From Bdellovibrionota bacterium (GTDB lineage Bacteria > Bdellovibrionota > UBA2428), in assembly GCA_044347615.1 (NCBI GenBank), contig JBIKUK010000003.1, positions 139,895 to 203,894 of the forward strand: 64,000 bases of DNA. Direction: 5' to 3'. Each line of letters begins with the position of its first letter. The stretch's first letter is position 1. Of the stretch, positions 1 through 11,458 are shown piece after piece. Both the position numbers and the translations under genes were made by a program. The notes beneath the pieces were generated by a model. The model was given only the letters and a program-made list of their open reading frames with translations. It was not told the origin of the DNA and did not search any database.

Positions 1-726
1 AGACGATTTTCGAATACTTATGATTTCCTGTATCTTTTCATCAACTAATTCTCGATGAGAAAGTCGCTCGTCGGCAATTTTGTCGAGTAAAGTTTTGTTG
101 GGGTAACTTGAAAAGAAAAAAGGAATAATCAGTCGAGTCTGTAAGTTTTGAGTGATGATTGGCCAAATTGCTGCGAAGGCGACTGTTGAATACGCAAAAA
201 TACTCGCATGGGGATCACCAGAGGCATGCGCTTTAGAGAGTGCAGGAATTCCCGTCACAAGCCCGTACACAAGCGTGCTGATCCACCAATTCATAAGAAC
301 CTTCATACGTGGAGTGATATTTTCTTCGAGAGTCACACCATTTCGAACAATTTGAGAAAGCTGATAAGAAACATAAGACTGAGCCATTGCTACAAGTGTG
401 TCACTGGTGAGAAATTCCTTACCCATCAACGTTCGCGCAACAAGCGCTCCTACTGGATCGTTCACCAAACCCATCACAGGAGTCTCAACAAGCATATAAA
501 AACGCTTGTTCTCATCTTTAAGACTTCTCATTAGGGGAATGACAGGAATAAAGTGACCTGCAAAATTTGCAGACTTAAGGAGAAAACTTTTTTCTTGATT
601 ATCAATTAGCTCTTCTTGATTTTGGTTTTGATTTTCAGAGGCAAAAGTTCTTTGAGAATAACTCAGCGGAGCCGTGAAAAGCCCAAATTGAAGCAGACAC
701 AGCAAACCTCTTTTTAAGCTAATCAT
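1..726 (-). CDS. hypothetical secreted protein; N-terminal 242 codons in window, 3' end beyond window start
   Basis: Manual reverse-complement translation: ATG at 726..724 gives MISLKRGLLCLLQFGLFTAPLSYS... (signal-peptide-like) and reads without a stop to position 1. Not in ORF table because no stop falls in the window. Makes plus-strand ORFs 152..534 spurious. No recognisable domain. Confidence 0.45.
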   Translation of the reverse strand, partial: MISLKRGLLCLLQFGLFTAPLSYSQRTFASENQNQNQEELIDNQEKSFLLKSANFAGHFIPVIPLMRSLKDENKRFYMLVETPVMGLVNDPVGALVARTLMGKEFLTSDTLVAMAQSYVSYQLSQIVRNGVTLEENITPRMKVLMNWWISTLVYGLVTGIPALSKAHASGDPHASIFAYSTVAFAAIWPIITQNLQTRLIIPFFFSSYPNKTLLDKIADERLSHRELVDEKIQEIISIRKSS

Positions 727-939
727 TAAACGCAAAAAGTACAGATCACGACTTACTGTGTCAACTCCAAAGGCGATTCATAAGATTGATTTTAAAGAGC
801 GTTTTCATTTGCCCTTATAGCTAAGAACCAAGAAAACACATAAGAATTACTTATGTTAAAAATAAAAAATCCTTTATTATCTTCTTGAGTCGCTCCCTCG
901 CTTTCGGTACAAATACCCATCGCTTCGAGGTGCAAGTTT

Positions 940-1968
940 TTGAAGCGAAAAACTTTAAAAAAGGTGCAAAAAAACGGAGCAATGACAAATTTTTTTAAAT
1001 CAAAAAAAACCAAAACCTTCACTCTTACGACTTTAACCTTTCTACTTTTAAGCTGCTCCAAAGAATACGAAATCGGCTCAAAAGACGAGCCTCTCAAACT
1101 TTACTTTGTCCCCTCTGATAACACTCAAAAAATTGAAAAAAATGCCGTGAGCGTCAAAGCGTTCATGGAGAAATTTGTTTCTCAAAAACTCTACAATAAA
1201 GACGAAGGATTCTATATTAAAACTGCCGTTCCCTTGAGCCACGTAGCTGTTGTTGAAGCTCTTGGAACCAAGCGCGCTGACTTTGCCGCTCTTGGCACAT
1301 TTGACTACGTCCTTGCAAAAGACATCAAAAAACTTTCTGTCGAAGCTGTTCTCAATATAGTGAGAGGCGAAAATGAACTCACTTACAAGAGTGCGATCAT
1401 TGCTCACGTCGACTCAAAAATTAACAACCTTGAAGATCTCAAAGGAAAGAAGTTTGCCTACGTCGATGCCTCTTCTGCATCTGGGTACATTCTTCCCAAC
1501 CTTCTTTTTAAAGATAAAAAAATTGATCTCGGTCAAACCGTTTTTGCTCAACGCCACGATAACGTCGTCACCATGGTTTACCAAAAACAAGTTGATGGCG
1601 GAGCGATCTACTACAATCTTCCTAAAGGAAAAGAAATGAAAGATGCCCGAGCTCGTGTGCTTACTCAATTTCCCGACGTTGAGAAAAAAGTAAAGATCAT
1701 TGGCTTCACTCAAGAAATCCCAAACGCCCCTTGGGTCTTGCGATCAAACCTTTACAAAGATCCCGTAAAATTCACAAAAGTTAAAGATGCTCTTCAAGAA
1801 GGAATTATTGCTTTTATGAAAACTGAAGAAGGCAAAGCTGCGATGATGGATCTTTATTCCATCACAGGCTTTGTCAAAACCAACGATGAAGACTTCAAGG
1901 ATGTTCGAAAGTCATTTCTTCAAGCGTATTCACAGTTAGAGGCAGAAAAAAAGACAACGACCAAATAA
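940..1968 (+). CDS. PhnD-family (phosphonate/phosphite ABC transporter) periplasmic substrate-binding lipoprotein
   Basis: Lipobox LLLSC after N-terminal basic/hydrophobic segment. Co-linear with E. coli PhnD (LKLYFVPS..., SKINNLEDLKGKKFAY vs PhnD SPINNLNDL..., GYILPNLLF). Alternative start at 982 (MTNFF). No permease/ATPase partner adjacent. Confidence 0.65.
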   Translation: MKRKTLKKVQKNGAMTNFFKSKKTKTFTLTTLTFLLLSCSKEYEIGSKDEPLKLYFVPSDNTQKIEKNAVSVKAFMEKFVSQKLYNKDEGFYIKTAVPLSHVAVVEALGTKRADFAALGTFDYVLAKDIKKLSVEAVLNIVRGENELTYKSAIIAHVDSKINNLEDLKGKKFAYVDASSASGYILPNLLFKDKKIDLGQTVFAQRHDNVVTMVYQKQVDGGAIYYNLPKGKEMKDARARVLTQFPDVEKKVKIIGFTQEIPNAPWVLRSNLYKDPVKFTKVKDALQEGIIAFMKTEEGKAAMMDLYSITGFVKTNDEDFKDVRKSFLQAYSQLEAEKKTTTK

Positions 1969-1984
1969 AGAAGGGGGAAGCAAA

Positions 1985-4222
1985 ATGAAACGTGTATCTC
2001 ACAACACACTCAAGGCCCTAAAAGCTCTTTTAATTATCTGCTCAATCTCTTCGAACAAAAATCTCTTCGCCGTTACTGCAAAATTAAAACCTGTAGGATG
2101 CCGACTTGTTCTTCAAACAGTGTACGATCAAGTACACCTTGCAAAAGAAAGCCCCACCGTCATCGATTCAAAAAGCTCAGCCCTCCAAAGAGCGGCTGTT
2201 CCACCCGAAGTTGATTCCGTCATCCAAGCTTTTGGCCCCTTTGAACAACCCTCTGCTGTTCAAGTTTTCTCCGATGGAAAACTTGGCGTATACGGAACAA
2301 AAACAGGCGTCGCACTTGCACGTGCAGACGTTGTGACCATGAAAAAAACGGTCGACCTTCTGACCGGAACTTCTCAACAAAAACATTTTGAGTTCAACAT
2401 TGACGGAAAAAAAGTCACTCTTGAAGGAGCCAGCAGCGTTGTTGGATCTGCACGCATTAAGAGATCATTTGCAGACGTTGATGCGGAATTAACTCTTGTC
2501 GTGAAATACGATGGCTTTAAAGAAGCTGACTTCCACGACCCCAACAGCACCTTCGCAAAAGCCGTCGAGCAATTTGTTTTAAAATATGTCCGAGAAGGTG
2601 AAGAAAGAGGAATGATTTTCTCAGAAGCCAAAGCCGGCCACCACGACCACATTCCGGCTGAAGCAGCCTCAACAAAAAGTAAAGCAATCAAATGGAGCAA
2701 AGAAAACATTAATAAAGGCGAGCAAAAAATTCCCTCTGAAATTCAGTCAAAAGACATTGCCTTCAGTTTTCGAGAAGGACTCACAAGCCACTCACGAATT
2801 AAATTCGATTGGTTTTTGCGTGTAGAAGTTCCGCAAGAATACCAAGCAAAATTCTCTGGGATGACCTCGCGTATCGTCGAAGGAAGTGTGATGCTCAACC
2901 TTGCAGGACGCAACGGCGAAAATAGTGCTGTTCCCTTTGTCAGCCAGATGACAGACTTTCCAGAACTTGGCGCGACAGGCGGACACATTGCTGTAGAAGG
3001 TTACGCAGACAACAAACCCCTCAAAATTACCTCTCTCTTTTTTGATCACAACGAATATGAAATTGCGCGATCTGTAACCGTGACAGCGCCTTTCACTCCT
3101 ATCTACTTTTTGGGAAAATCTGTTTTGAATGCAGCCCGAACCTACAGAGAACAAGGAAAAGTTTTTAAAGCTTTGAGAATTCTTTTTAGCCGCTTGAACT
3201 ACACAAACGACGTAGATGCTTATCGCATCGAGATGGAAAGAAATGGACAAAAAGAAAAAGCGGGGAGCTTTAGAGAAATCGTTTCTTCTTTTAGGAAAAT
3301 TGTCGAAGACCCTCTCATCAACGACCTCTCTTTACTTTTAGGCACAGCTAAAAACATGCTCAAACTTAAAGAACTTGGCTACGAATCTACCGCTGACGAA
3401 GCAGCTCTTGTCGCTGCCATCAACAAATACTCCAAGGAGCACCCCCAAGAACTGAGAACACAAATTCGTGAAATATCCGATCACCCCATCGACCTACTCC
3501 AAAAAGCAATCAACAATATTACTTGGAAAAGAATTTCTGAGCACAAAGGACTCAAGGGTTATATCGACTACACACTTAAAAACAATCAAGCTTTTTCAAA
3601 TCCAGAACTTCCGCCTGAGAGAATCTTTATTTCACTCACACCAAGCTCTACGTTCCTCGAACAATACGAAAACAATCTTGTTCAGTGGAAGTCTCAATAC
3701 CCTAACCTTATCTTTGAACACAAAAACGACTTGCACATGACGATTGCTTTCTTAGGACAGCTCTCCATGGAACAAAGACACAAAATGCAAGCAGGACTCA
3801 ATGAGTTTAACAGAACGCTTCAAGAAACGGATCTCAACTTTGAGGGAGCTTCTCTTCAAAAAATTGGTCGTGGAAAAAACGACGCCTTCATTGCACTTCG
3901 CTTTGACCCAGAGAGAGTTGACCCCAAACTCAAGGCTGCAATTTTAAAACTCAAACAAGAAGCCGCTCTTGCAGGAGTTGTTCCCGACAGACACTTCGAC
4001 TCGTTTGTTCCTCACATCACTCTTTGCAGTCTTCCTAAAGAGCTACAAGGTGAAAAGGGTCATTCAGACTTTGCTCACTTTCTTGCGAACGAAACAGCTC
4101 AAGGAATGAACACAAACACAGTCACTCATGACGTGAAAGTTCTCTACCGAGTCATCGACAACAAAAACGAAGCAGAGCCTGTCTATCGCGAAACAAAACT
4201 CGAAGAAGCAGGAACTCCGTAA
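1985..4222 (+). CDS. large protein (745 aa): ~560-aa N-terminal region of unknown function fused to C-terminal 2H phosphoesterase (LigT/ThpR-like RNA 2',3'-cyclic phosphodiesterase) domain
   Basis: C-terminal ~180 aa align with E. coli ThpR: RIFISLTPS / DLHMTIAFLGQLS (first H-x-T-x motif) / FVPHITLCSL (second H-x-T-x motif). RBS aagggggaag upstream. The N-terminal region has no motif I recognise. Confidence 0.6.
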   Translation: MKRVSHNTLKALKALLIICSISSNKNLFAVTAKLKPVGCRLVLQTVYDQVHLAKESPTVIDSKSSALQRAAVPPEVDSVIQAFGPFEQPSAVQVFSDGKLGVYGTKTGVALARADVVTMKKTVDLLTGTSQQKHFEFNIDGKKVTLEGASSVVGSARIKRSFADVDAELTLVVKYDGFKEADFHDPNSTFAKAVEQFVLKYVREGEERGMIFSEAKAGHHDHIPAEAASTKSKAIKWSKENINKGEQKIPSEIQSKDIAFSFREGLTSHSRIKFDWFLRVEVPQEYQAKFSGMTSRIVEGSVMLNLAGRNGENSAVPFVSQMTDFPELGATGGHIAVEGYADNKPLKITSLFFDHNEYEIARSVTVTAPFTPIYFLGKSVLNAARTYREQGKVFKALRILFSRLNYTNDVDAYRIEMERNGQKEKAGSFREIVSSFRKIVEDPLINDLSLLLGTAKNMLKLKELGYESTADEAALVAAINKYSKEHPQELRTQIREISDHPIDLLQKAINNITWKRISEHKGLKGYIDYTLKNNQAFSNPELPPERIFISLTPSSTFLEQYENNLVQWKSQYPNLIFEHKNDLHMTIAFLGQLSMEQRHKMQAGLNEFNRTLQETDLNFEGASLQKIGRGKNDAFIALRFDPERVDPKLKAAILKLKQEAALAGVVPDRHFDSFVPHITLCSLPKELQGEKGHSDFAHFLANETAQGMNTNTVTHDVKVLYRVIDNKNEAEPVYRETKLEEAGTP

Positions 4223-4224
4223 CT

Positions 4225-5052
4225 GTGAATTTATCGCCTCTTGAATTAGAAAAAGTATTCTTAGAAGCTCACGAAATCGCTTTGAAGTTTTTTAAATCAG
4301 CCACTCTACAAGTAGAAAACAAAGCCGACCTCAGTCCTGTCACACAAGCCGATCACGCGCTCAATGAATATTTCCTCAAAAAACTTACGCAAATTATTCC
4401 CAATTCAGCTGTTTTGGGAGAAGAAGGCAGCACTCGTATTCACGATCACGAACTTCCGCAATATTGTTGGATCCTAGACCCGATCGATGGCACAAAGGAG
4501 TTTATTTCGGGTAATGACGAATGGGCCGTGCAACTTTGCCTGTATGAAAAAAACGAAGGCTGTCTGCTTTCTATTTTATCACAACCTACTAAAAAACTTT
4601 TTTCTTATGCTCAAAAAGGCAAAGGTGCTTTCACAAAAGACCTCAGCACAGGAAACACCACTCAACTCAAAGCCTCTCACAAAAGCTCTTCTCTTGAGGC
4701 AACTCTTTTAGCTTCTAAAAGCCGTAAAGATACCTGGACAGAAAGCATTATTAAAAACCATCCCTTTAAAAATACAAACAGCGTAGGATCCATCGGGCTT
4801 AAAACTTTAGAAATCGCTTCTGGAAGAGCCGACTTCTACATGAACGGAGATCAAAAGTGTGGCGCGTGGGATATCTTCCCATGCCTGCCTTTTTTGATCG
4901 AAAGCGGAGCAGACTACTGGACCTCGAAAGATCTGAACTGGAAAGAAGAAATCAAAAACAAAAACATTCAGGCTCATTTTGCTTTTGGAACAAAGGGACT
5001 CATTCAAAACATGAAAGCTGATCTTGCCAAAAGTGTTTCCTCAATAGTTTAG
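4225..5052 (+). CDS. cysQ: CysQ-type 3'(2'),5'-bisphosphate nucleotidase / inositol monophosphatase-family 3'-phosphatase
   Basis: WILDPIDGTKEFISGND matches CysQ signature WLVDPLDGTKEFI (DGTKEF is CysQ-type, not SuhB-type). GTG start 3 nt after upstream TAA, suggesting translational coupling. Confidence 0.7.
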   Translation: MNLSPLELEKVFLEAHEIALKFFKSATLQVENKADLSPVTQADHALNEYFLKKLTQIIPNSAVLGEEGSTRIHDHELPQYCWILDPIDGTKEFISGNDEWAVQLCLYEKNEGCLLSILSQPTKKLFSYAQKGKGAFTKDLSTGNTTQLKASHKSSSLEATLLASKSRKDTWTESIIKNHPFKNTNSVGSIGLKTLEIASGRADFYMNGDQKCGAWDIFPCLPFLIESGADYWTSKDLNWKEEIKNKNIQAHFAFGTKGLIQNMKADLAKSVSSIV

Positions 5053-5066
5053 GAGACAAACCGGCG

Positions 5067-5849
5067 ATGACTCTTAAAGTTTTTACCCGATCAGGCCTAA
5101 GCCCTGAAGATTTTTTTGACTCACAAAAAAACGATAGCGCAAAAACACGGGCTGTTTTTACGATTGGAATTTCTGGATCTGGAAAATCTCACTGGTCTCG
5201 AATTGCTGAGCAAAACAATTGGAACGTTTTGAATTCCGACTCCATTCGTGTGGAATGGCTTAAGAAAGCCCAACTTGAAAATAAAAAAGTTCTGATCAAC
5301 GGACAACTCACCCTGCCCGACCCTCAAAATGAAGAGCATGTTTTTTGCCCTGAACTAAGAGCTCTTGTGATGGATAGCGATTACCTTCTTTCTCTTACAA
5401 AGCCTGAGCAGGCCGTTGTTTTTGATATCACAAACCTCACACTTCAAAGAGTTCCGCTTATGCTGAAAACAACTCTCAAAGGCTATGCAGTTGAAGCTCT
5501 TGTTTTTGCGCCCAACTCTCTGGAAGTGCATCAAAAAAACGTGTCGCTTCGAAAAAATGTTAAAAGTGGCTTGGGAGTTTCTGAAAAAGTTATCTCGGAT
5601 CTGTACAATACGTTTCAAGTTTTTTGCACAAACCTTAAAGCAAATCCTCAATCACAAATTATTAGCCAAGAAGAAATCAAAAAACTCTGCTCAACGTCTT
5701 TTGATTTTACTTTAATGAGAAAAAACCACGCTTCTTTTGAGGCTTTTTTATTGAGCCTCAGTCCTGAGCAAAAAGCATTCGCTCAAGAGCTCAGCCAAAA
5801 AGATATATTTAGTAAAATTGAATATGTCGACGTTCAAGAATTTATTTGA
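5067..5849 (+). CDS. P-loop kinase, T4 polynucleotide kinase-like (AAA_33 family)
   Basis: Walker A TIGISGSGKSHWSR followed by NVLNSDSIR resembles T4 Pnk kinase N-terminus TIGCPGSGKSTWAREF...NINRDDYR. Good RBS aggaga 8 nt upstream of ATG. Confidence 0.6.
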   Translation: MTLKVFTRSGLSPEDFFDSQKNDSAKTRAVFTIGISGSGKSHWSRIAEQNNWNVLNSDSIRVEWLKKAQLENKKVLINGQLTLPDPQNEEHVFCPELRALVMDSDYLLSLTKPEQAVVFDITNLTLQRVPLMLKTTLKGYAVEALVFAPNSLEVHQKNVSLRKNVKSGLGVSEKVISDLYNTFQVFCTNLKANPQSQIISQEEIKKLCSTSFDFTLMRKNHASFEAFLLSLSPEQKAFAQELSQKDIFSKIEYVDVQEFI

Positions 5850-5853
5850 AAAT

Positions 5854-6945
5854 CTAGATCCACAAAGATGCATCGCCATAAGAAAACAAGCGATAGTTTT
5901 TTGAAACCGCATATTGATAAGCTTCTTGTGCGAGCTTGAGCGATCCTCCAAAAACGCTCACCAACACAAAAAGAGATGATTGCGGCAAATGAAAATTAGT
6001 CATCAAAGCAGAAACTTTTTTGAATTCGTAACCTGGACGCACAAACAAACGGGTCTGACCTTGAACGAAATCCTCGCTAGGTGAAGATTTCCCTTGAAGA
6101 AAGTTCTTTAAATCCAAATCAGCTACCGTCTCGGTCAAACGGCAAGCCGTGGTTCCAATTGCTAAGACCTTTGAAGATTGCTGAATTTTTTGTGCCTCAG
6201 ACAAAAGCAATTCATAGGGCTCAGCATGTAATTGCGCCGCACTCAAATCATCTGTGCGCAAAGGCTCAAAAGTTCCCCGACCCACATGCAAATAAGTATC
6301 CGCAGATTGAATTTGCTGAGACTTTAACTGCTCCCATAGCTCATTTGTAAAATGCAAAGAAGCCGTAGGCGCTGCTGAACTCAGCGCGGGCCCTTGGGCC
6401 CACACAGGCTGGTAACGCTCACGATCGGCCTCTACGACATCGCGTTTGATATACGGAGGCAAAGGGATGCGTCCAAAACTCTCAATCCGAGCAACCGCCT
6501 CAAGAGAGGAAAAAGAAACTTCATCGGGACCACTCACGCACAAAATATCTTCACTGCCTTCGATTTTTAATTCTTCAGGGAATTTCAACTTTGCAACGTT
6601 CTTGATGAGCGCTTTCCAAGAAGTGGGAGAAAGTTTTTCCGTGAGAACAATTTCGTGGCGACTTCCTGTTTGTCTTTTGGCAAACAAACGCGCAGGCAAA
6701 ACGCGTGTGCGATTACGAACCCACAAATAGTCTTTTAAATAAGAATTCTGCGCAACAACGTGCGGAAGATCCGAAAACTTAAGATCTTCAAAACGAGGAA
6801 GTCCTCCCTCGGAATGGCGACGAACAATCAACAACCTGGATTCATCTCGCCGATCACTCGGAAAATGCGCGATAGAAGACTCCTCAAAATTATACGAGTA
6901 CTCGGCCAAGGAATTTGGCAAATCCGAAAAAGTCGCCTTTGTCAT
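5854..6945 (-). CDS. queA: S-adenosylmethionine:tRNA ribosyltransferase-isomerase
   Basis: DESRLLIV, RNRTRVLPARLF, GRIPLPPYIKR are QueA hallmarks. Start placed at internal MTKATF (6945) rather than ORF-table start 7005, which would overlap the next gene. Confidence 0.85.
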   Translation of the reverse strand: MTKATFSDLPNSLAEYSYNFEESSIAHFPSDRRDESRLLIVRRHSEGGLPRFEDLKFSDLPHVVAQNSYLKDYLWVRNRTRVLPARLFAKRQTGSRHEIVLTEKLSPTSWKALIKNVAKLKFPEELKIEGSEDILCVSGPDEVSFSSLEAVARIESFGRIPLPPYIKRDVVEADRERYQPVWAQGPALSSAAPTASLHFTNELWEQLKSQQIQSADTYLHVGRGTFEPLRTDDLSAAQLHAEPYELLLSEAQKIQQSSKVLAIGTTACRLTETVADLDLKNFLQGKSSPSEDFVQGQTRLFVRPGYEFKKVSALMTNFHLPQSSLFVLVSVFGGSLKLAQEAYQYAVSKNYRLFSYGDASLWI

Positions 6946-6994
6946 AGGCAAAGACTGTAAATTGCAAGAAGTTCTAGGACAAGCGAAATAGACC

Positions 6995-8215
6995 TTAACG
7001 AACACCCATAGAAAATAAATCGCGCTGAAAGGGAGCTTTATTTACAGGAGTACTTTCGCCGCTGATTCTTGCCCCGGGATAATAAGCAGAGAGAATTTTT
7101 TTATAATTCCATCCCTTCTCCGCAAGATTACGTGCGCCGATTTGGCTCAGGCCCACACCGTGACCAAAACCTCTTCCCTCTAAAAGCCAACCCGACCCCT
7201 TAGGCTCCACATCAAAAAGAGTACTCTTGATCCAACGACCGCCTAAAAGTTTTCTAAACTCTGAGCCCTTCAAAACTTTCGATCCACTATCTCCCACCAA
7301 ATAAACCTTTTGGACACGCTCGCCTTCGGTTCGCTCTACAATTTGAAAATCTCTCAGGGCTCCTAATCCAGGAATTTTAAACCCAAACCAAGGGCCAATC
7401 GAAACCTTCCATCGAAAGCGATCATCACTTGCCTCAGGAGGCGACCGCAAAGAATAAATAGAACCCTCTAACGTATTTTTAGACCCCCACACTGTTTCTG
7501 GCCGCTCGAGAGTGCCCCCCGATGAGGCATGGTAATAAGCCTTCACAACCTTGCCACTGCTCAACAAAACTTTTCCGCGAGTTTCTTGCACAGCAAAGTG
7601 GCTTTTAGCATCTTCCACATGAGCCCCTTTATAAACTTGATCCATGTCTGTGGAATCAAGATCGTATTCCATCTGTCGCGGCCGTCTTTCCTTAAGGCAA
7701 GCCAGCGCATAGCTTCTTGCCGCCACCACCTGCGCCTTTATTGCTTCTTTGGGATACTTCGAAGAAATTTCGCTATTCACTATGCCCACAAGATACGATT
7801 CCATATCCAGCTCATTCACAATCATGAGCTTGCGATCTTTCACAGGAATCAAATGAATCGTGTCGCGATAAAAAGCCTTGCCAATGTGAATAAATCCCTC
7901 GCCTGATTGAACAACGATGCGACCTTCGAACTTTAATTTTTTATTTTTGCCTTGGCAGATCCAGCCATCTCTAAATCGACAATTAAGTTCCGAACCCTGC
8001 AGGGCAATTCCATTTACTTTCAGCTCACTTGCCCGAAGGCTCAGTGGACGAAAAAACTCTCTTTGCTCTAACAGGATTCGGACCTTCAGAGGAAGGGGCT
8101 CCTTGATCTCTCGAACCACAGGAGAATCACCTTTCAGCGACTCATCTCCCTCCCCGTGGCCCAAGAGGGTCAGAAAGAAAGAAAGGACGACCAGAGTTGC
8201 CCAATTCCTCCCCAC
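6995..8215 (-). CDS. SpoIID/LytB-domain protein (secreted)
   Basis: N-terminal signal peptide; GFGHGVGLSQIGA matches the SpoIID/LytB conserved motif GHGVGMSQ.GA. Confidence 0.7.
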   Translation of the reverse strand: MGRNWATLVVLSFFLTLLGHGEGDESLKGDSPVVREIKEPLPLKVRILLEQREFFRPLSLRASELKVNGIALQGSELNCRFRDGWICQGKNKKLKFEGRIVVQSGEGFIHIGKAFYRDTIHLIPVKDRKLMIVNELDMESYLVGIVNSEISSKYPKEAIKAQVVAARSYALACLKERRPRQMEYDLDSTDMDQVYKGAHVEDAKSHFAVQETRGKVLLSSGKVVKAYYHASSGGTLERPETVWGSKNTLEGSIYSLRSPPEASDDRFRWKVSIGPWFGFKIPGLGALRDFQIVERTEGERVQKVYLVGDSGSKVLKGSEFRKLLGGRWIKSTLFDVEPKGSGWLLEGRGFGHGVGLSQIGARNLAEKGWNYKKILSAYYPGARISGESTPVNKAPFQRDLFSMGVR

Positions 8216-8350
8216 ACGATGATGCTAACAAGTGCCGCCCTGCGCGAGGAATAGTCAAATTGCGCAAGGCTCAAAAATTCTCTGACGAAATCGTCAAAAC
8301 TTCGGCAAGATCCTCTCGAAAAACCGCACTTTGAGAATTAAACATGTTTC

Positions 8351-9526
8351 GTGCGTTTGCGTATTTGTTTTTGGATTTTTATTTTTTCTTTGCTGAGCTG
8401 TCAGCGCGCAGAAAAAAATCTCAGCGTAGATTCCATCTACAAAAAAATAATTTCTCACAAAAGTATAACGGTCGAAGAAGCTCTCAAAGTTATTTCCCCC
8501 GAACTCAAAACTTATTTCACTCTCAAATTTGATTCCGATAGCATGCAAGGGGCCTCCCCCACTCACCCTCGAGCCATCACATCAAACGCCGAGGGAACGC
8601 TCTACATGAGTTTCAATGGTCACCCCGACCAAGACGAATATCACTCGCTTGAATTTTTGGAATACAAAAACGACGCTGTTTTACTTTCATCTATTCAATT
8701 TGATCCTGAAGGCAAAAAACTTCCCACACTTTTTCGCCCAGGCCCGCAGGATTCTTGCTTGAGCTGCCACAGAGGCATCGATCAAACAATCATACCCCTA
8801 TGGGAACCTTACGTTGGAACTCGAGACAAAGAGATGGATGTCGAGGGAGCGTATCGCGGACACAGGGTAGACAAAGCCTTCACCCAAAACCCCGAGGCCC
8901 TTAAGCAAGAAAAGAATCTGCAAGATTTTTTAAAGAGTGCCCCTCAACACCCTCGCTACCAAAAACTCACTCACTTAGTTTCAAGTTACAAGATCAATTC
9001 TCAAGATGATCAATCAGCAAACCTTCACAACACACTCATGAACTATCGCATTCAGCGCCTGATGGCTGACCAGCTCGCTCGAACGCTCCTCAAGCGCCCA
9101 AATTACCAAGCTATGAAGTTTGATCTTTTGGGTGCCGCCTTGGGATGCAAGGGTGTTCAAGCGCCCGTGGATTTTCGCACCCTCACAAGCGAAATTCATA
9201 TGACGAACATGGACATAACGGATCGCTTTGCCCAAAATCCTTTAGGTGCACGCTTTTTTAATACCGAGATTCTCGCGGCTTACTTGGCCCACTACGACCC
9301 TCGCCTTCAGCCCCTTTTGCCTGTGTTGTGGATAAGCCCCAAACAAGCTCCTCAAGCCTTCTTTGATGTGGCAAAACTACTCCCCTCAAGCCTCCAAACA
9401 ATCGATCAAATAAGTGTGCTGCCGCCCATTCCTGTGCTCAAAATCCTCTTCCAAGAAGGACGTTTTGTCTTGGATCGCACGACTCCCTGTGAGACGCTCC
9501 ATAAGCTTGTAAAAGCTGCGAATTAG
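8351..9526 (+). CDS. hypothetical lipoprotein with single CXXCH motif
   Basis: Lipobox LLSC. Internal DSCLSCHRG is a CXXCH heme-c-binding-type motif. Otherwise no recognisable domain. Confidence 0.55.
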   Translation: MRLRICFWIFIFSLLSCQRAEKNLSVDSIYKKIISHKSITVEEALKVISPELKTYFTLKFDSDSMQGASPTHPRAITSNAEGTLYMSFNGHPDQDEYHSLEFLEYKNDAVLLSSIQFDPEGKKLPTLFRPGPQDSCLSCHRGIDQTIIPLWEPYVGTRDKEMDVEGAYRGHRVDKAFTQNPEALKQEKNLQDFLKSAPQHPRYQKLTHLVSSYKINSQDDQSANLHNTLMNYRIQRLMADQLARTLLKRPNYQAMKFDLLGAALGCKGVQAPVDFRTLTSEIHMTNMDITDRFAQNPLGARFFNTEILAAYLAHYDPRLQPLLPVLWISPKQAPQAFFDVAKLLPSSLQTIDQISVLPPIPVLKILFQEGRFVLDRTTPCETLHKLVKAAN

Positions 9527-9600
9527 CCTCTTTTCGTCTTGACCAAGACCACATTCTGGTTGATGTTAGGAGGACATTTTAGGAACTATAAGGAAGAGCT

Positions 9601-10014
9601 ATGTCCACTGAAAAAGTAGAAAAAACTGAGAAAAAAACAAAGAAATCAGCAGCCCCCAAAGTTAAAACAACTAAAAACTGGAAAGCTCCTCTTGAGTTTC
9701 CTTATGCGGTTCTTCGTACGGGCTCCAAACAATATTGCGTTTCAAAAGGCGATCAGATTTTAGTTGAAAAACTAAATCTTGAGCCTGGAAGTTCTTGGAC
9801 TGCAGAAGAAGTTCTCTTCGTGGCTCAAAGTCCTGGAAAAATTCAAGTTGGAAAACCAACACTCGCAGGAGCGAAAGTGAAATGCGAAGTTCTTCAACAA
9901 ACACTCGACGGAAAGATTTTAATCCGTCACAGCCGTCGTCGCCAAAGCTCACAAAAAACTTTGGGACATCGTCAACCTCTCACACGTTTGCTCGTGACTG
10001 AGATTGTTGCTTAG
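9601..10014 (+). CDS. rplU: 50S ribosomal protein L21 with lysine-rich N-terminal extension
   Basis: YAVLRTGSKQYCVSKGDQILVEKL matches the L21 core YAVIKTGGKQYKV. C-terminal GHRQPLTRLLVTEI. RBS ggaag upstream. Confidence 0.9.
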   Translation: MSTEKVEKTEKKTKKSAAPKVKTTKNWKAPLEFPYAVLRTGSKQYCVSKGDQILVEKLNLEPGSSWTAEEVLFVAQSPGKIQVGKPTLAGAKVKCEVLQQTLDGKILIRHSRRRQSSQKTLGHRQPLTRLLVTEIVA

Positions 10015-10032
10015 GCAGAATAGGAGACAACT

Positions 10033-10299
10033 GTGGCATCAAAAAAAGCTGGTGGTAGTACCAAAAACGGACGTGATTCCAATCCAAAATACTTAGGCGT
10101 AAAAGCTTTTGGTGGAGAATTTGTAACATCAGGAAGCATTATCGTAAGACAACGTGGAACGAAGTTTCACGCGGGACGTAACGTAGGCCTTGGCCGCGAT
10201 CACACTCTCTTTGCATTGGCTGACGGTGTGGTGTCTTTCAAAAACCATAAATCTTCTCCTACACAAGTAGAGATTCTTCCAGTAGCTGTTGAAGCTTAA
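10033..10299 (+). CDS. rpmA: 50S ribosomal protein L27
   Basis: [24 protein letters not shown]...[14 protein letters not shown] is canonical L27. GTG start with RBS aggaga at 10022-10027. Confidence 0.9.
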
Positions 10300-10330
10300 G
10301 AAGACCGAAATTTAAAAACTTTATAAAAAA

Positions 10331-10364
10331 AGCACTCAATCTGATTGGGTGCTTTTTTTATTTT
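10331..10364 (+). terminator. rho-independent terminator after rpmA
   Basis: agcactcaat-ctg-attgggtgct hairpin (10-bp stem, one G-U pair) followed by tttttttatttt. Confidence 0.65.
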
Positions 10365-10378
10365 GAAGAGACGAAAAT

Positions 10379-11458
10379 ATGAATTTTATAGACGAAGCAA
10401 GTATCGATGTTCGCTCCGGTGACGGAGGTGCGGGCTCCGTACATTTCATGCGCCAAATCTATCGACCTCGAATGGGTCCTGATGGTGGCGATGGAGGCAG
10501 AGGCGGTCACCTTTATTTTGTGGCGACTCGTAACATGAGCAGTCTCTTGGATTTTCGTTTTCAAAAAAAATACTATGCTCCAAATGGTGAACCCGGACGA
10601 GGCACCGACAAAAACGGACGTAAAGGCAAAGATCTCGAAATTAAAGTTCCTGTAGGAACCATGGTCAAAGACGCTGAAACGGGCAAGATTTTGCTCGACC
10701 TGGTAGAAGCCGATAAACCCGTGCTCTTCTTAAAAGGTGGTCGCGGTGGATTGGGCAACATGAACTTTGCCACTTCACGCAGACAAACACCTAACTTTGC
10801 TCAACCTGGCGAAAAAGGCTCAGGCTTAAAAGTAAAACTCGAACTCAAACTCTTGGCCGACGTGGGCCTTGTAGGCTTTCCCAATGCGGGCAAATCAACG
10901 CTCATTTCAAAAATGAGTGCTGCGAAACCTAAAATCGCAAACTACCCCTTCACCACGCTTGTTCCTAATCTGGGCGTAGTGCGCGGAAAAAGTCGCGATT
11001 GGGTTTTAGCGGATATTCCAGGAATTATTGAAGGAGCAAGTGAAGGCAAGGGATTGGGGCACCAATTCTTAAGGCACTGCGAACGCACACATATGTTGAT
11101 CGTATTAATCGACAGTGATCCTTTAACTGATCGAAAACTAAGCGACGAATACAAAGTTCTGATGAAAGAGCTTAAGGCTTACTCAAAAGAACTCGCAAAA
11201 AAACCAAAACTCGTTGTGTTGAGCAAAGGGGATATTTGGAATGAAGAATCCATTACTCAACGCGAAGGGTATGCTGCCCTAAAAAAGCTTCTCAAAAAAA
11301 CTCCGCTTCTTATTTCTGCTCCAAGTGGAGAAGGCCTTGATGAACTCACTTTGAAAGTTGAAAGCGAATTGAAAAAAATTGGCAACATCAAGAGAGAGAA
11401 TGTCGTCAATGAAGAACTCAAACTTGGACCTCAAGATCTTTTCGACGAAGACAAGTAA
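10379..11458 (+). CDS. obg: GTPase Obg/CgtA
   Basis: Obg fold N-terminus GGDGGAGSVHF..GPDGGDGGRGG. G1 GFPNAGKST. G3 DIPG. G4 LSKGD. Confidence 0.9.
   Translation: MNFIDEASIDVRSGDGGAGSVHFMRQIYRPRMGPDGGDGGRGGHLYFVATRNMSSLLDFRFQKKYYAPNGEPGRGTDKNGRKGKDLEIKVPVGTMVKDAETGKILLDLVEADKPVLFLKGGRGGLGNMNFATSRRQTPNFAQPGEKGSGLKVKLELKLLADVGLVGFPNAGKSTLISKMSAAKPKIANYPFTTLVPNLGVVRGKSRDWVLADIPGIIEGASEGKGLGHQFLRHCERTHMLIVLIDSDPLTDRKLSDEYKVLMKELKAYSKELAKKPKLVVLSKGDIWNEESITQREGYAALKKLLKKTPLLISAPSGEGLDELTLKVESELKKIGNIKRENVVNEELKLGPQDLFDEDK

Follow-up and report, generated by a model that had tools for sequence, protein, structure and literature searches.

Here we describe a gene cluster at the left end of a 64,000-nucleotide stretch of DNA from a Bdellovibrionota bacterium (contig JBIKUK010000003.1, positions 139,895 to 203,894; hereafter the window), in which three adjacent open reading frames (ORF1, ORF2, and ORF3) encode an apparently exported protein with a C-terminal 2H phosphoesterase domain, a phosphomonoesterase of the IMPase superfamily, and a P-loop kinase related to polynucleotide kinase (PNK), respectively. 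The operon is headed by a gene for a binding lipoprotein of the PhnD/PtxB family and is flanked by a divergent gene, here called X. We favor, with a probability of about 0.45, the reading that this is a module of predatory Bdellovibrionota that uses RNA end-healing chemistry for nutrient salvage and not for repair. The evidence consists of gene order, protein families, catalytic residues, genetic linkage, gene fusions, export signals, and taxonomic restriction. Judged from their sequences, ORF1, the lipoprotein, and X are expected outside the cytoplasm and the phosphatase and kinase inside it, with an ATP-binding cassette (ABC) importer linking the two sides in some lineages. This split between compartments argues against a cytoplasmic RNA-repair complex, which we disfavor, and for a pathway of uptake and conversion.

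Organization of the cluster

ORF1 (1985-4222, + strand, 745 residues, ATG to TAA) and ORF2 (4225-5052, + strand, 275 residues, GTG to TAG) are separated by two nucleotides (TAA-CT-GTG), and ORF3 (5067-5849, + strand, 260 residues, ATG to TGA) follows after a gap of 14 nucleotides, with a GGAG sequence overlapping the ORF2 stop codon (TAGGAGAC). A first-pass annotation of this DNA had described three tightly packed, translationally coupled genes at exactly these positions; the TAA-n-GTG coupling and the ribosome-binding site (RBS) in the second gap are present, but that gap is 14 and not 15 nucleotides long. The extent given there, 1985-5849, was too narrow, as two more genes belong to the cluster. 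The PhnD-like lipoprotein gene (940-1968, + strand), the first of the operon, ends 16 nucleotides before ORF1 with a strong RBS in between (GAAGGGGGAAG), and the 3′ part of gene X (1-663, - strand), which runs off the left edge, is divergent from the operon and represents the fifth conserved gene of the cluster. The base composition of the cluster is the same as that of the neighboring genes. An Rfam search of the window gave zero matches, and the operon boundaries were not definable by a scan for promoters and terminators.

A PNK-like kinase paired with an IMPase-family phosphatase

The three enzyme superfamilies and the motifs named in the first-pass annotation (two HxT motifs, DPIDGTKEF, and a Walker A region) were all recovered, Pfam calling LigT_PEase in ORF1, Inositol_P in ORF2, and AAA_33 in ORF3. 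For ORF3 (E = 2.7e-7; 31.4 bits against a cut-off of 27), the P-loop GISGSGKS (residues 34-41; 5166-5189) is followed by NSDSIR (D58 and R61; 5232-5249), FDITNLTLQR (D120, N123, and R128; 5421-5450), a lid segment with R162 (5547-5570), and a family-specific C-terminal extension (residues 176-260; 5592-5846). The first two elements reproduce the PNK signature, a GxxGxGKS/T P-loop and, about 20 residues later, the Asp of a DxxR motif; this Asp is the general base that activates the 5′-OH in polynucleotide kinases (PMC11571804). In an alignment of 20 family members, G37, G39, K40, S41, D58, R61, F93, D120, R128, F147, R162, and G168 are invariant, and DxTN is listed among the invariant features together with the P-loop, DxxR, and the lid Arg. 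HMMER placed K40, S41, D58, R61, D120, and R162 on K15, S16, D35, R38, D85, and R126 of T4 Pnk.

The ORF3 family is rare, with seven close proteins among 5.8 billion and 69 clusters among 1.84 billion representatives. As a single sequence, ORF3 reached T4 Pnk in the P-loop region without significance (E = 1.9). A profile of the 20 closest full-length relatives ranked T4 Pnk first (E = 6e-9), over the segment from the P-loop to DxxR only, and a profile of 58 members again gave T4 Pnk as the best match (E = 7.5e-17), now over residues 2-146, that is, the whole kinase domain. Next in rank were Pnkp1, a Mucorales RNA 5′-OH kinase (RazKIN), mammalian PNKP, and Clostridium thermocellum Pnkp (CthPnkp), so that the nearest profile relatives over the kinase domain are polynucleotide kinases. 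The earlier assignment of a PNK-like kinase, which a confident match to another kinase family would have overturned, is thus borne out; gluconate, shikimate, and APS kinases were considered and rejected, the top profile matches being polynucleotide kinases throughout. By relationship, ORF3 is probably a 5′-OH kinase of the T4 Pnk type, whose substrate length (mononucleotide or polymer) is not readable from sequence. Foldseek with the ORF3 model (pLDDT, the predicted local distance difference test score, 69) returned generic P-loop kinases only, none at E<=1e-3, and was not used to assign the family. No match to the kinase was obtained by tblastn against phages, and a metagenome scan with the kinase profile yielded seven weak, uninformative loci, the back-translated P-loop pattern being too generic.

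ORF2 matches Pfam Inositol_P with E = 4.8e-38 and carries the metal and substrate motifs of the IMPase fold that are also seen in CysQ (GEE, DPxDGT, and WD), here as GEEGS (4417-4431), DPIDGTKEF (residues 85-93; 4477-4503), and the WD of WDIFP (4867-4872). The more specific label "CysQ-type" given to it earlier is not sustained. ORF2 lies far below the cut-off of the CysQ equivalog model TIGR01331 (111.4 against 228.8 bits), the HisN model TIGR02067 scores similarly (104.7 bits against a cut-off of 275), and the ranking of PDB entries mixes HisN, CysQ, and other IMPase structures. No hydrophobic segment is present at the N-terminus, and both ORF2 and ORF3 are predicted to be cytoplasmic.

Gene contexts were gathered by a genome scan, a profile search, and contig look-ups, and were tallied with hidden Markov models (HMMs) of the families. 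The phosphatase gene is immediately upstream of the kinase gene, or fused to it, in about 12 lineages, that is, in every relative with enough flanking sequence, at kinase identities of 27-49%. The two genes often overlap by 4-11 nucleotides, and phosphatase-kinase fusions of 535-569 residues occur in at least three divergent groups (kinase clusters P0014/P0081/P0082, P0016, and P0026). Like T4 Pnkp, the pair combines a P-loop kinase, predicted to act on the 5′-OH and with six invariant catalytic residues aligned, and a putative remover of 3′-phosphate, in one polypeptide in several relatives. It differs from T4 Pnkp in that the phosphatase has the IMPase fold (HAD/DxDxT in T4) and is N-terminal to the kinase in the fusions, in that the kinase has an additional C-terminal domain of 85 residues and an insert of about 40 residues, and in that there is no ligase partner and the genes lie within an uptake operon. 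ORF2 shares the IMPase fold and metal motifs with CysQ and with the archaeal fusion of an IMPase-type NADP phosphatase to NAD kinase (NCBIfam NF010678, a weak match), which is a precedent for an IMPase-family nucleotide 2′/3′-phosphatase joined to a kinase. Here, in contrast, the phosphatase does not score as a CysQ equivalog and its partner is PNK-like with a P-loop, not of the NadK type.

ORF1 is a large, apparently exported protein with a C-terminal 2H domain

Only six close homologues of ORF1 (also termed BIG2H) were found among 5.8 billion proteins; full-length relatives with 27-39% identity occur at loci L021, L022, L023, and L025. Residues 1-30 (1985-2074) look like a signal peptide (MKRVSHNTLKALKALLIICSISSNKNLFA, with cleavage predicted before V). 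All six full-length family members examined have such a segment, with K/R residues ahead of a hydrophobic stretch 10-14 residues long and a small-x-small site after it; the sequence itself is variable and its character is kept, the maximum of hydropathy over ten residues being 2.45-3.19 at residues 12-23. The phosphatases and kinases have nothing comparable, with a maximum of <=2.0 outside the P-loop strand. The signal peptide, being conserved, rules out that the 2H protein works in the same compartment as ORF2 and ORF3. In ORF1 (PVGC39; 2090-2101) and in other exported proteins in or near the module (N-termini encoded at L010 6104-7024, L010 7024-8118, L011 5166-6458, and L023 4978-7164), a Cys that is not part of a lipobox follows the predicted cleavage site by 3-12 residues; it could be a sorting or disulfide feature specific to the lineage.

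The 2H domain occupies only the C-terminal quarter of the protein (residues 546-723; 3620-4153). Pfam LigT_PEase matches residues 546-702 (E = 1.2e-6; 29.1 bits against a cut-off of 23.3), and Foldseek with the ORF1 model found E. coli LigT (5ldm; E = 2.3e-5, 20-22% identity), all 19 matches at E<=1e-3 being 2H proteins. The two motifs are HMT at residues 584-586 (within HMTIAF, HxTxxF; 3734-3751) and HIT at residues 677-679 (within HITLCS, HxTxxS; 4013-4030). H584, T586, and H677 are invariant, and the motifs as a whole are invariant or HxS in eight homologues. The two HxT/S motifs, the fold (duplicated alpha+beta lobes in 2H proteins), and the Pfam score together place the domain in the 2H phosphoesterase superfamily. 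It falls outside the ThpR/LigT subfamily model (TIGR02258, 34.5 bits against a cut-off of 65.7). With E. coli ThpR/LigT, its best fold match, it shares both HxT motifs and the aromatic position of HxTxxF, which is kept as Phe or Tyr throughout the family; it differs in forming the C-terminal part of a 745-residue exported protein and in lacking the Arg of HxTxxR.

The N-terminal part is well conserved over residues 84-410 (2234-3214) and continues as a helical region to about residue 536. In eight divergent homologues the residues G154, S155, D164, D166, K216, D221, T230, S232, K236, W237, R271, K273, D275, R296, and E299 are invariant; they include Asp, Lys, Arg, Glu, Thr, and Ser but neither His nor Cys. 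The N-terminal 540 residues gave no match in Pfam, NCBIfam, PDB sequence and profile searches, Foldseek, or tblastn against plasmids. An invariant GS-x8-DxD motif (residues 153-168; 2441-2488) lies between two predicted strands, and a conserved acidic residue is found on the strand that follows (residues 210-216; 2612-2632). This arrangement resembles the signature of Pol-beta nucleotidyltransferases; sequence and fold searches gave no support for the resemblance, which we mention as a lead only.

The operon is headed by a PhnD/PtxB-family lipoprotein

The likely true start of the lipoprotein gene is an ATG at 982, which places a lipobox (LLLSC) at 1042-1056. The product matches Pfam Phosphonate-bd (E = 2.9e-39) and TIGR01098 (167 bits against a cut-off of 112), and its closest solved relatives are PtxB (5o2j; E = 9e-20), marine PhnD, HtxB, ArrX, and E. 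coli PhnD. The lipobox, S-x-S-G (1471-1485), and RHD (1552-1560) are kept in all eight binding proteins of the module; S-x-S-G and the His are the residues that hold the phosphoryl head group in the PhnD/PtxB family. EYPQYPW of PtxB is replaced by IPNAPW in the eight module copies (1717-1734 in the window), and the module proteins lack the aromatic cap that bars larger ligands and limits PtxB to phosphite. Since the family also includes GpxB, which binds glycerol phosphate, a phosphate monoester (PMC12718374), a ligand of that kind is plausible by analogy for the module lipoprotein.

Genes for a PhnC/E-type ATPase and permease directly follow the kinase gene at three loci from two lineages (L010, L012, and L021). 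The system resembles PhnCDE, PtxABC, and GpxABCD (TCDB 3.A.1.9) in its extracytoplasmic binding protein, the phosphoryl-head residues kept in it, and the ATPase and permease at these loci. It departs from them in a low score for the PhnD equivalog model (114 against a cut-off of 261 bits), the replaced PtxB cap, and the absence of C-P lyase, PtxD, or glycerol-phosphate genes near the module. Upstream of the phosphatase, kinase, and ABC genes at L010 (6104-8118) and L012 (1443-3463), two translationally coupled genes encode exported proteins of about 306 and 364 residues without known family, which may stand in for the missing ORF1-like gene.

Conservation and taxonomic range

A lipoprotein of the PhnD type is part of the cluster in eight lineages, a large ORF1-like 2H protein in seven, and gene X in five. 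Co-occurrence of the trio in other genomes, on which the first-pass annotation had made its case depend, was observed for the phosphatase-kinase pair in about 12 lineages and for the large 2H protein with the pair in seven, a grouping that goes beyond chance. In relatives with 52% identity in ORF1, the lipoprotein, ORF1, and divergent X are ordered as in the window, along with a phosphatase-kinase of 535 residues. A comparison of the window (1-11458) with L001 (786-13802) and L002 (1-13811) showed an inversion of the whole segment from X to the kinase, as one piece, with respect to a conserved block of QueA, SpoIID, L21, L27, and Obg. At L011 (6469-11748) a tandem, mirror-like duplication has the order binding protein, phosphatase, kinase, phosphatase, kinase, binding protein, its paralogues sharing 27-35% identity with their counterparts in the window. 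Among 185,579 species genomes scanned there were eight hits, all of them metagenome-assembled genomes of Bdellovibrionota, one being 97-98% identical to the window, and every genome hit that carried a taxon name was from Bdellovibrionota.

The HMM of the gene X family matches the window at 37-663 (- strand; E = 3e-63), and homologues adjoin the module at L001 (7596-8726, - strand), L002, L008, L011 (5166-6458), L013 (478-1644), and L024 (7050-8114, - strand). The product has 350-430 residues with a signal-like N-terminus and belongs to no Pfam or PADLOC family. A multi-pass permease was considered for X and rejected, as the hydropathy profile has just the N-terminal signal-like segment.

Four lineages have a small protein of 186-208 residues in the cluster that matches Pfam PF22547, "Swiss Army Knife, 2H phosphoesterase domain" (2H-SAK; L021 16041-16625, L022 9001-9627, L023 3182-3775, and L025 3384-3944 on the - strand). 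Only the L022 copy has a signal peptide, and the window contains no homologue.

A candidate route for nucleotide salvage

From these features we infer the substrates, the order of the reactions, and the link with predation. Outside the cytoplasm, the 2H domain of ORF1 would open 2′,3′-cyclic phosphates, on mono- or oligonucleotides left by metal-independent RNases, to give 2′- or 3′-phosphomonoesters with a free 5′-OH. The lipoprotein would bind the phosphoryl group of these products and hand them to a PhnC/E-type ABC importer, encoded beside the module in some relatives and presumably elsewhere in the genome studied here. In the cytoplasm, the PNK-like kinase would phosphorylate the 5′-OH (Np to pNp), and the IMPase-family enzyme would remove the 2′/3′-phosphate (pNp to pN), leaving ordinary 5′-nucleotides. 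T4 Pnk phosphorylates nucleoside 3′-monophosphates, and CysQ-type enzymes and bisphosphate nucleotidases require a 5′-phosphate, which is why the kinase is put first and the phosphatase second. In this scheme, kinase and phosphatase together would do the work of T4 Pnkp, the phosphatase being non-homologous. The first-pass annotation had proposed healing for repair, with nucleotide salvage as a secondary idea; the exported 2H protein, the uptake lipoprotein, and the ABC genes speak against the former, and the latter fits better. Restriction to predatory bacteria also fits salvage, as Bdellovibrio is reported to derive its nucleic acids largely from nucleoside monophosphates of its prey (PMC7529429, citing Ruby 1985 and Rittenberg 1975). 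A comparable case, should the model hold, would be E. coli CpdB, a periplasmic 2′,3′-cyclic phosphodiesterase/3′-nucleotidase; there, too, the products of RNases are handled outside the cytoplasm and then taken up (PMC4905662). CpdB is not homologous, and it strips the phosphate to give nucleosides, whereas the module would keep a phosphorylated intermediate.

A more specific version of the salvage reading is a new route in which 2′/3′-phosphorylated 5′-OH products of RNases enter by a PhnD-type transporter and undergo a PNK-IMPase "phosphate swap", with a new catalytic domain in exported ORF1, possibly nucleotidyltransferase-like, acting in the compartment of the prey. We consider this version less likely than not.

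Several observations weigh against nucleotide salvage, the first being that all substrates of the module are predicted. The signal peptides were assessed by hand, from hydropathy and residue pattern, and not by a dedicated predictor. Two thirds of ORF1 is a domain without known family; the acidic and basic residues that are invariant in it recall an enzyme that uses nucleoside triphosphates, which is odd for an exported protein. In the 2H domain, the position of the HxTxxR Arg is S, T, F, Q, H, or E across the family; this Arg is essential in ThpR, an enzyme that yields 2′-phosphate products (PMC4201822). ORF2 scores nearly equally for CysQ and HisN and is assigned to neither subfamily. The nearest solved relative of the lipoprotein binds phosphite, and no ABC ATPase or permease gene is found within the 64-kb window. 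At L027 (8001-9710), a GC-rich locus, the fused phosphatase-kinase P0026 (569 residues) lies beside pyruvate kinase and SpoIID, with no binding protein, 2H, or ABC gene nearby. The mostly cytoplasmic 2H-SAK protein of four lineages would make a purely cytoplasmic healing trio possible. Model quality is modest (pLDDT 69 for the kinase structure and 60 for a second model). Lastly, of the 69 clusters that make up the wider kinase family, at least 25 (P0023, P0028, P0030, P0034-36, P0041-46, P0048-51, P0053-56, P0058, P0061-63, and P0066) have an N-terminal signal peptide, unexpected for ATP-dependent enzymes; to judge from their N-termini, these members look like exported ATP-dependent kinases.

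Alternative readings

The best surviving alternative to nucleotide salvage, which we regard as unlikely, is that the module takes up and processes a non-nucleotide phosphate or cyclic phosphate, for example one of a polyol, a sugar, or a lipid head group. In this case, ring opening by the 2H domain would act on a cyclic phosphodiester, and after import the kinase-phosphatase pair would relocate or swap a phosphate on the molecule. Such ligands would suit the lipoprotein, as proteins of the PhnD family bind phosphite, phosphonates, and glycerol phosphates, and also the phosphatase, since the IMPase family acts on inositol, histidinol, and sugar phosphates and ORF2 scores equally for HisN and CysQ. 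The kinase speaks in both directions. Weak Pfam matches in its wider family include Zeta toxin and 6PF2K, which are small-molecule kinases, and the structural comparison does not separate PNK from other P-loop kinases; sequence profiles, on the other hand, place polynucleotide kinases alone in the leading ranks, and two features of T4 Pnk, DxxR and the lid Arg, are kept without exception. The 2H domain likewise points to nucleotides, being closest to LigT, which acts on RNA and nucleotides, and keeping the base-stacking aromatic residue of the ThpR HxTxxF motif.

Cytoplasmic RNA end-healing, in which the kinase, phosphatase, and 2H enzyme would turn breaks with 5′-OH and 2′,3′-cyclic phosphate into 5′-phosphate and 3′-OH ends, so that a ligase encoded elsewhere repairs the RNA or the damaged RNA becomes degradable, appears improbable. 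The nearest solved relatives of the kinase are all polynucleotide kinases, and PNK with 2H is the classical healing pair of Trl1 (PMC11571804). The module thus recalls Trl1/AtRNL (PNK and 2H cyclic phosphodiesterase), Pnkp/Hen1, Pnkp1-Rnl-Hen1, and RtcAB in combining a PNK-type kinase, a cyclic phosphodiesterase, and a phosphatase, and the small 2H-SAK protein, mostly without signal peptide, could provide the second activity inside the cell in the four lineages that have it. The sole 2H enzyme of the window is exported, however, the first gene of the operon encodes an uptake lipoprotein, and genes for an ABC importer are linked to the operon in relatives. Bacterial RNA-repair operons contain a ligase, with or without Hen1 or RtcA, and all their parts are cytoplasmic. 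Here, the parts are split between compartments, and Pfam annotation and scans found no RNA ligase, Hen1, RtcA, or RtcB, and hence no ligase, methyltransferase, or cyclase, at any examined locus of the approximately 12 lineages. The remark in the first-pass annotation that no ligase is present and that the arrangement is neither the classical Pnkp/Hen1 nor the RtcAB one consequently extends from the window to all these lineages. We know of no IMPase-family activity on RNA 3′ ends, which also counts against end-healing, and PADLOC gave no defense-system match for four window proteins and gene X.

Still less probable is a role in sensing or signaling, in which ORF1, once exported, would synthesize or break down an extracellular signal resembling a nucleotide by means of its nucleotidyltransferase-like and 2H domains, the lipoprotein would be a sensor like the binding proteins AioX and ArrX, and the cytoplasmic pair would reset the imported signal. 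It would account for the lack of ABC genes in the window, for ArrX being among the PDB relatives of the lipoprotein, and for the invariant GS-x8-DxD of ORF1 with an acidic residue on the next strand; some 2H enzymes cleave 2′-5′ oligonucleotides, and AKAP18 and MHV ns2 are among the fold matches. Against this, no histidine kinase or other transducer is conserved beside the module, ABC genes are adjacent at three loci, and the nucleotidyltransferase resemblance was backed by neither sequence nor fold searches. Phosphonate catabolism of the C-P lyase type, by analogy with PhnP and PhnN, was set aside, no C-P lyase genes being found nearby.

Novelty and implications

A literature search, with a coverage that did not include the RNA-repair survey of Burroughs and Aravind 2016 or Ruby 1985, found no description of the module or of the Pfam 2H-SAK family. 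The domains are known; as far as searched, there is apparently no description of their arrangement, of the fusion of IMPase and PNK, of the setting among uptake genes, of the kinase subfamily, or of the two proteins or domains without family. With this cluster, three items are added: a naturally occurring fusion of kinase and phosphatase that parallels T4 Pnkp but has another phosphatase fold; a PNK-like kinase family that is rare and has many seemingly exported members; and two conserved proteins or domains without known family. If nucleotide salvage is correct, RNA-repair chemistry (cyclic phosphodiesterase, 5′-kinase, and 3′-phosphatase) would have been recruited for feeding in bacteria that digest other bacteria, a transporter family of the phosphonate type would carry nucleotides, and an enzyme of the PNK type would have its first physiological role in nutrition and not in repair. 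It would also provide testable genes for the uptake and reuse of nucleotides without full dephosphorylation reported for Bdellovibrio in 1975-1985. Should the model be wrong, the cluster would still be a conserved, uncharacterized operon specific to predatory bacteria.

Additional observations

In the kinases with signal peptides, a Cys and a family motif, [ST]P.[ED][YF]F, lie between the signal peptide and the P-loop. At the one locus that shows the context of such a kinase (L026, 3315-4208), the gene stands alone, beside cpYpsA and GDPD genes. Further downstream in the window, 8351-9526 (+ strand) encodes a predicted lipoprotein of 391 residues (LLSC lipobox) between SpoIID and the L21-L27-Obg genes; the same position in L001 and L002 is occupied by ORFs of unrelated size with no assigned function.

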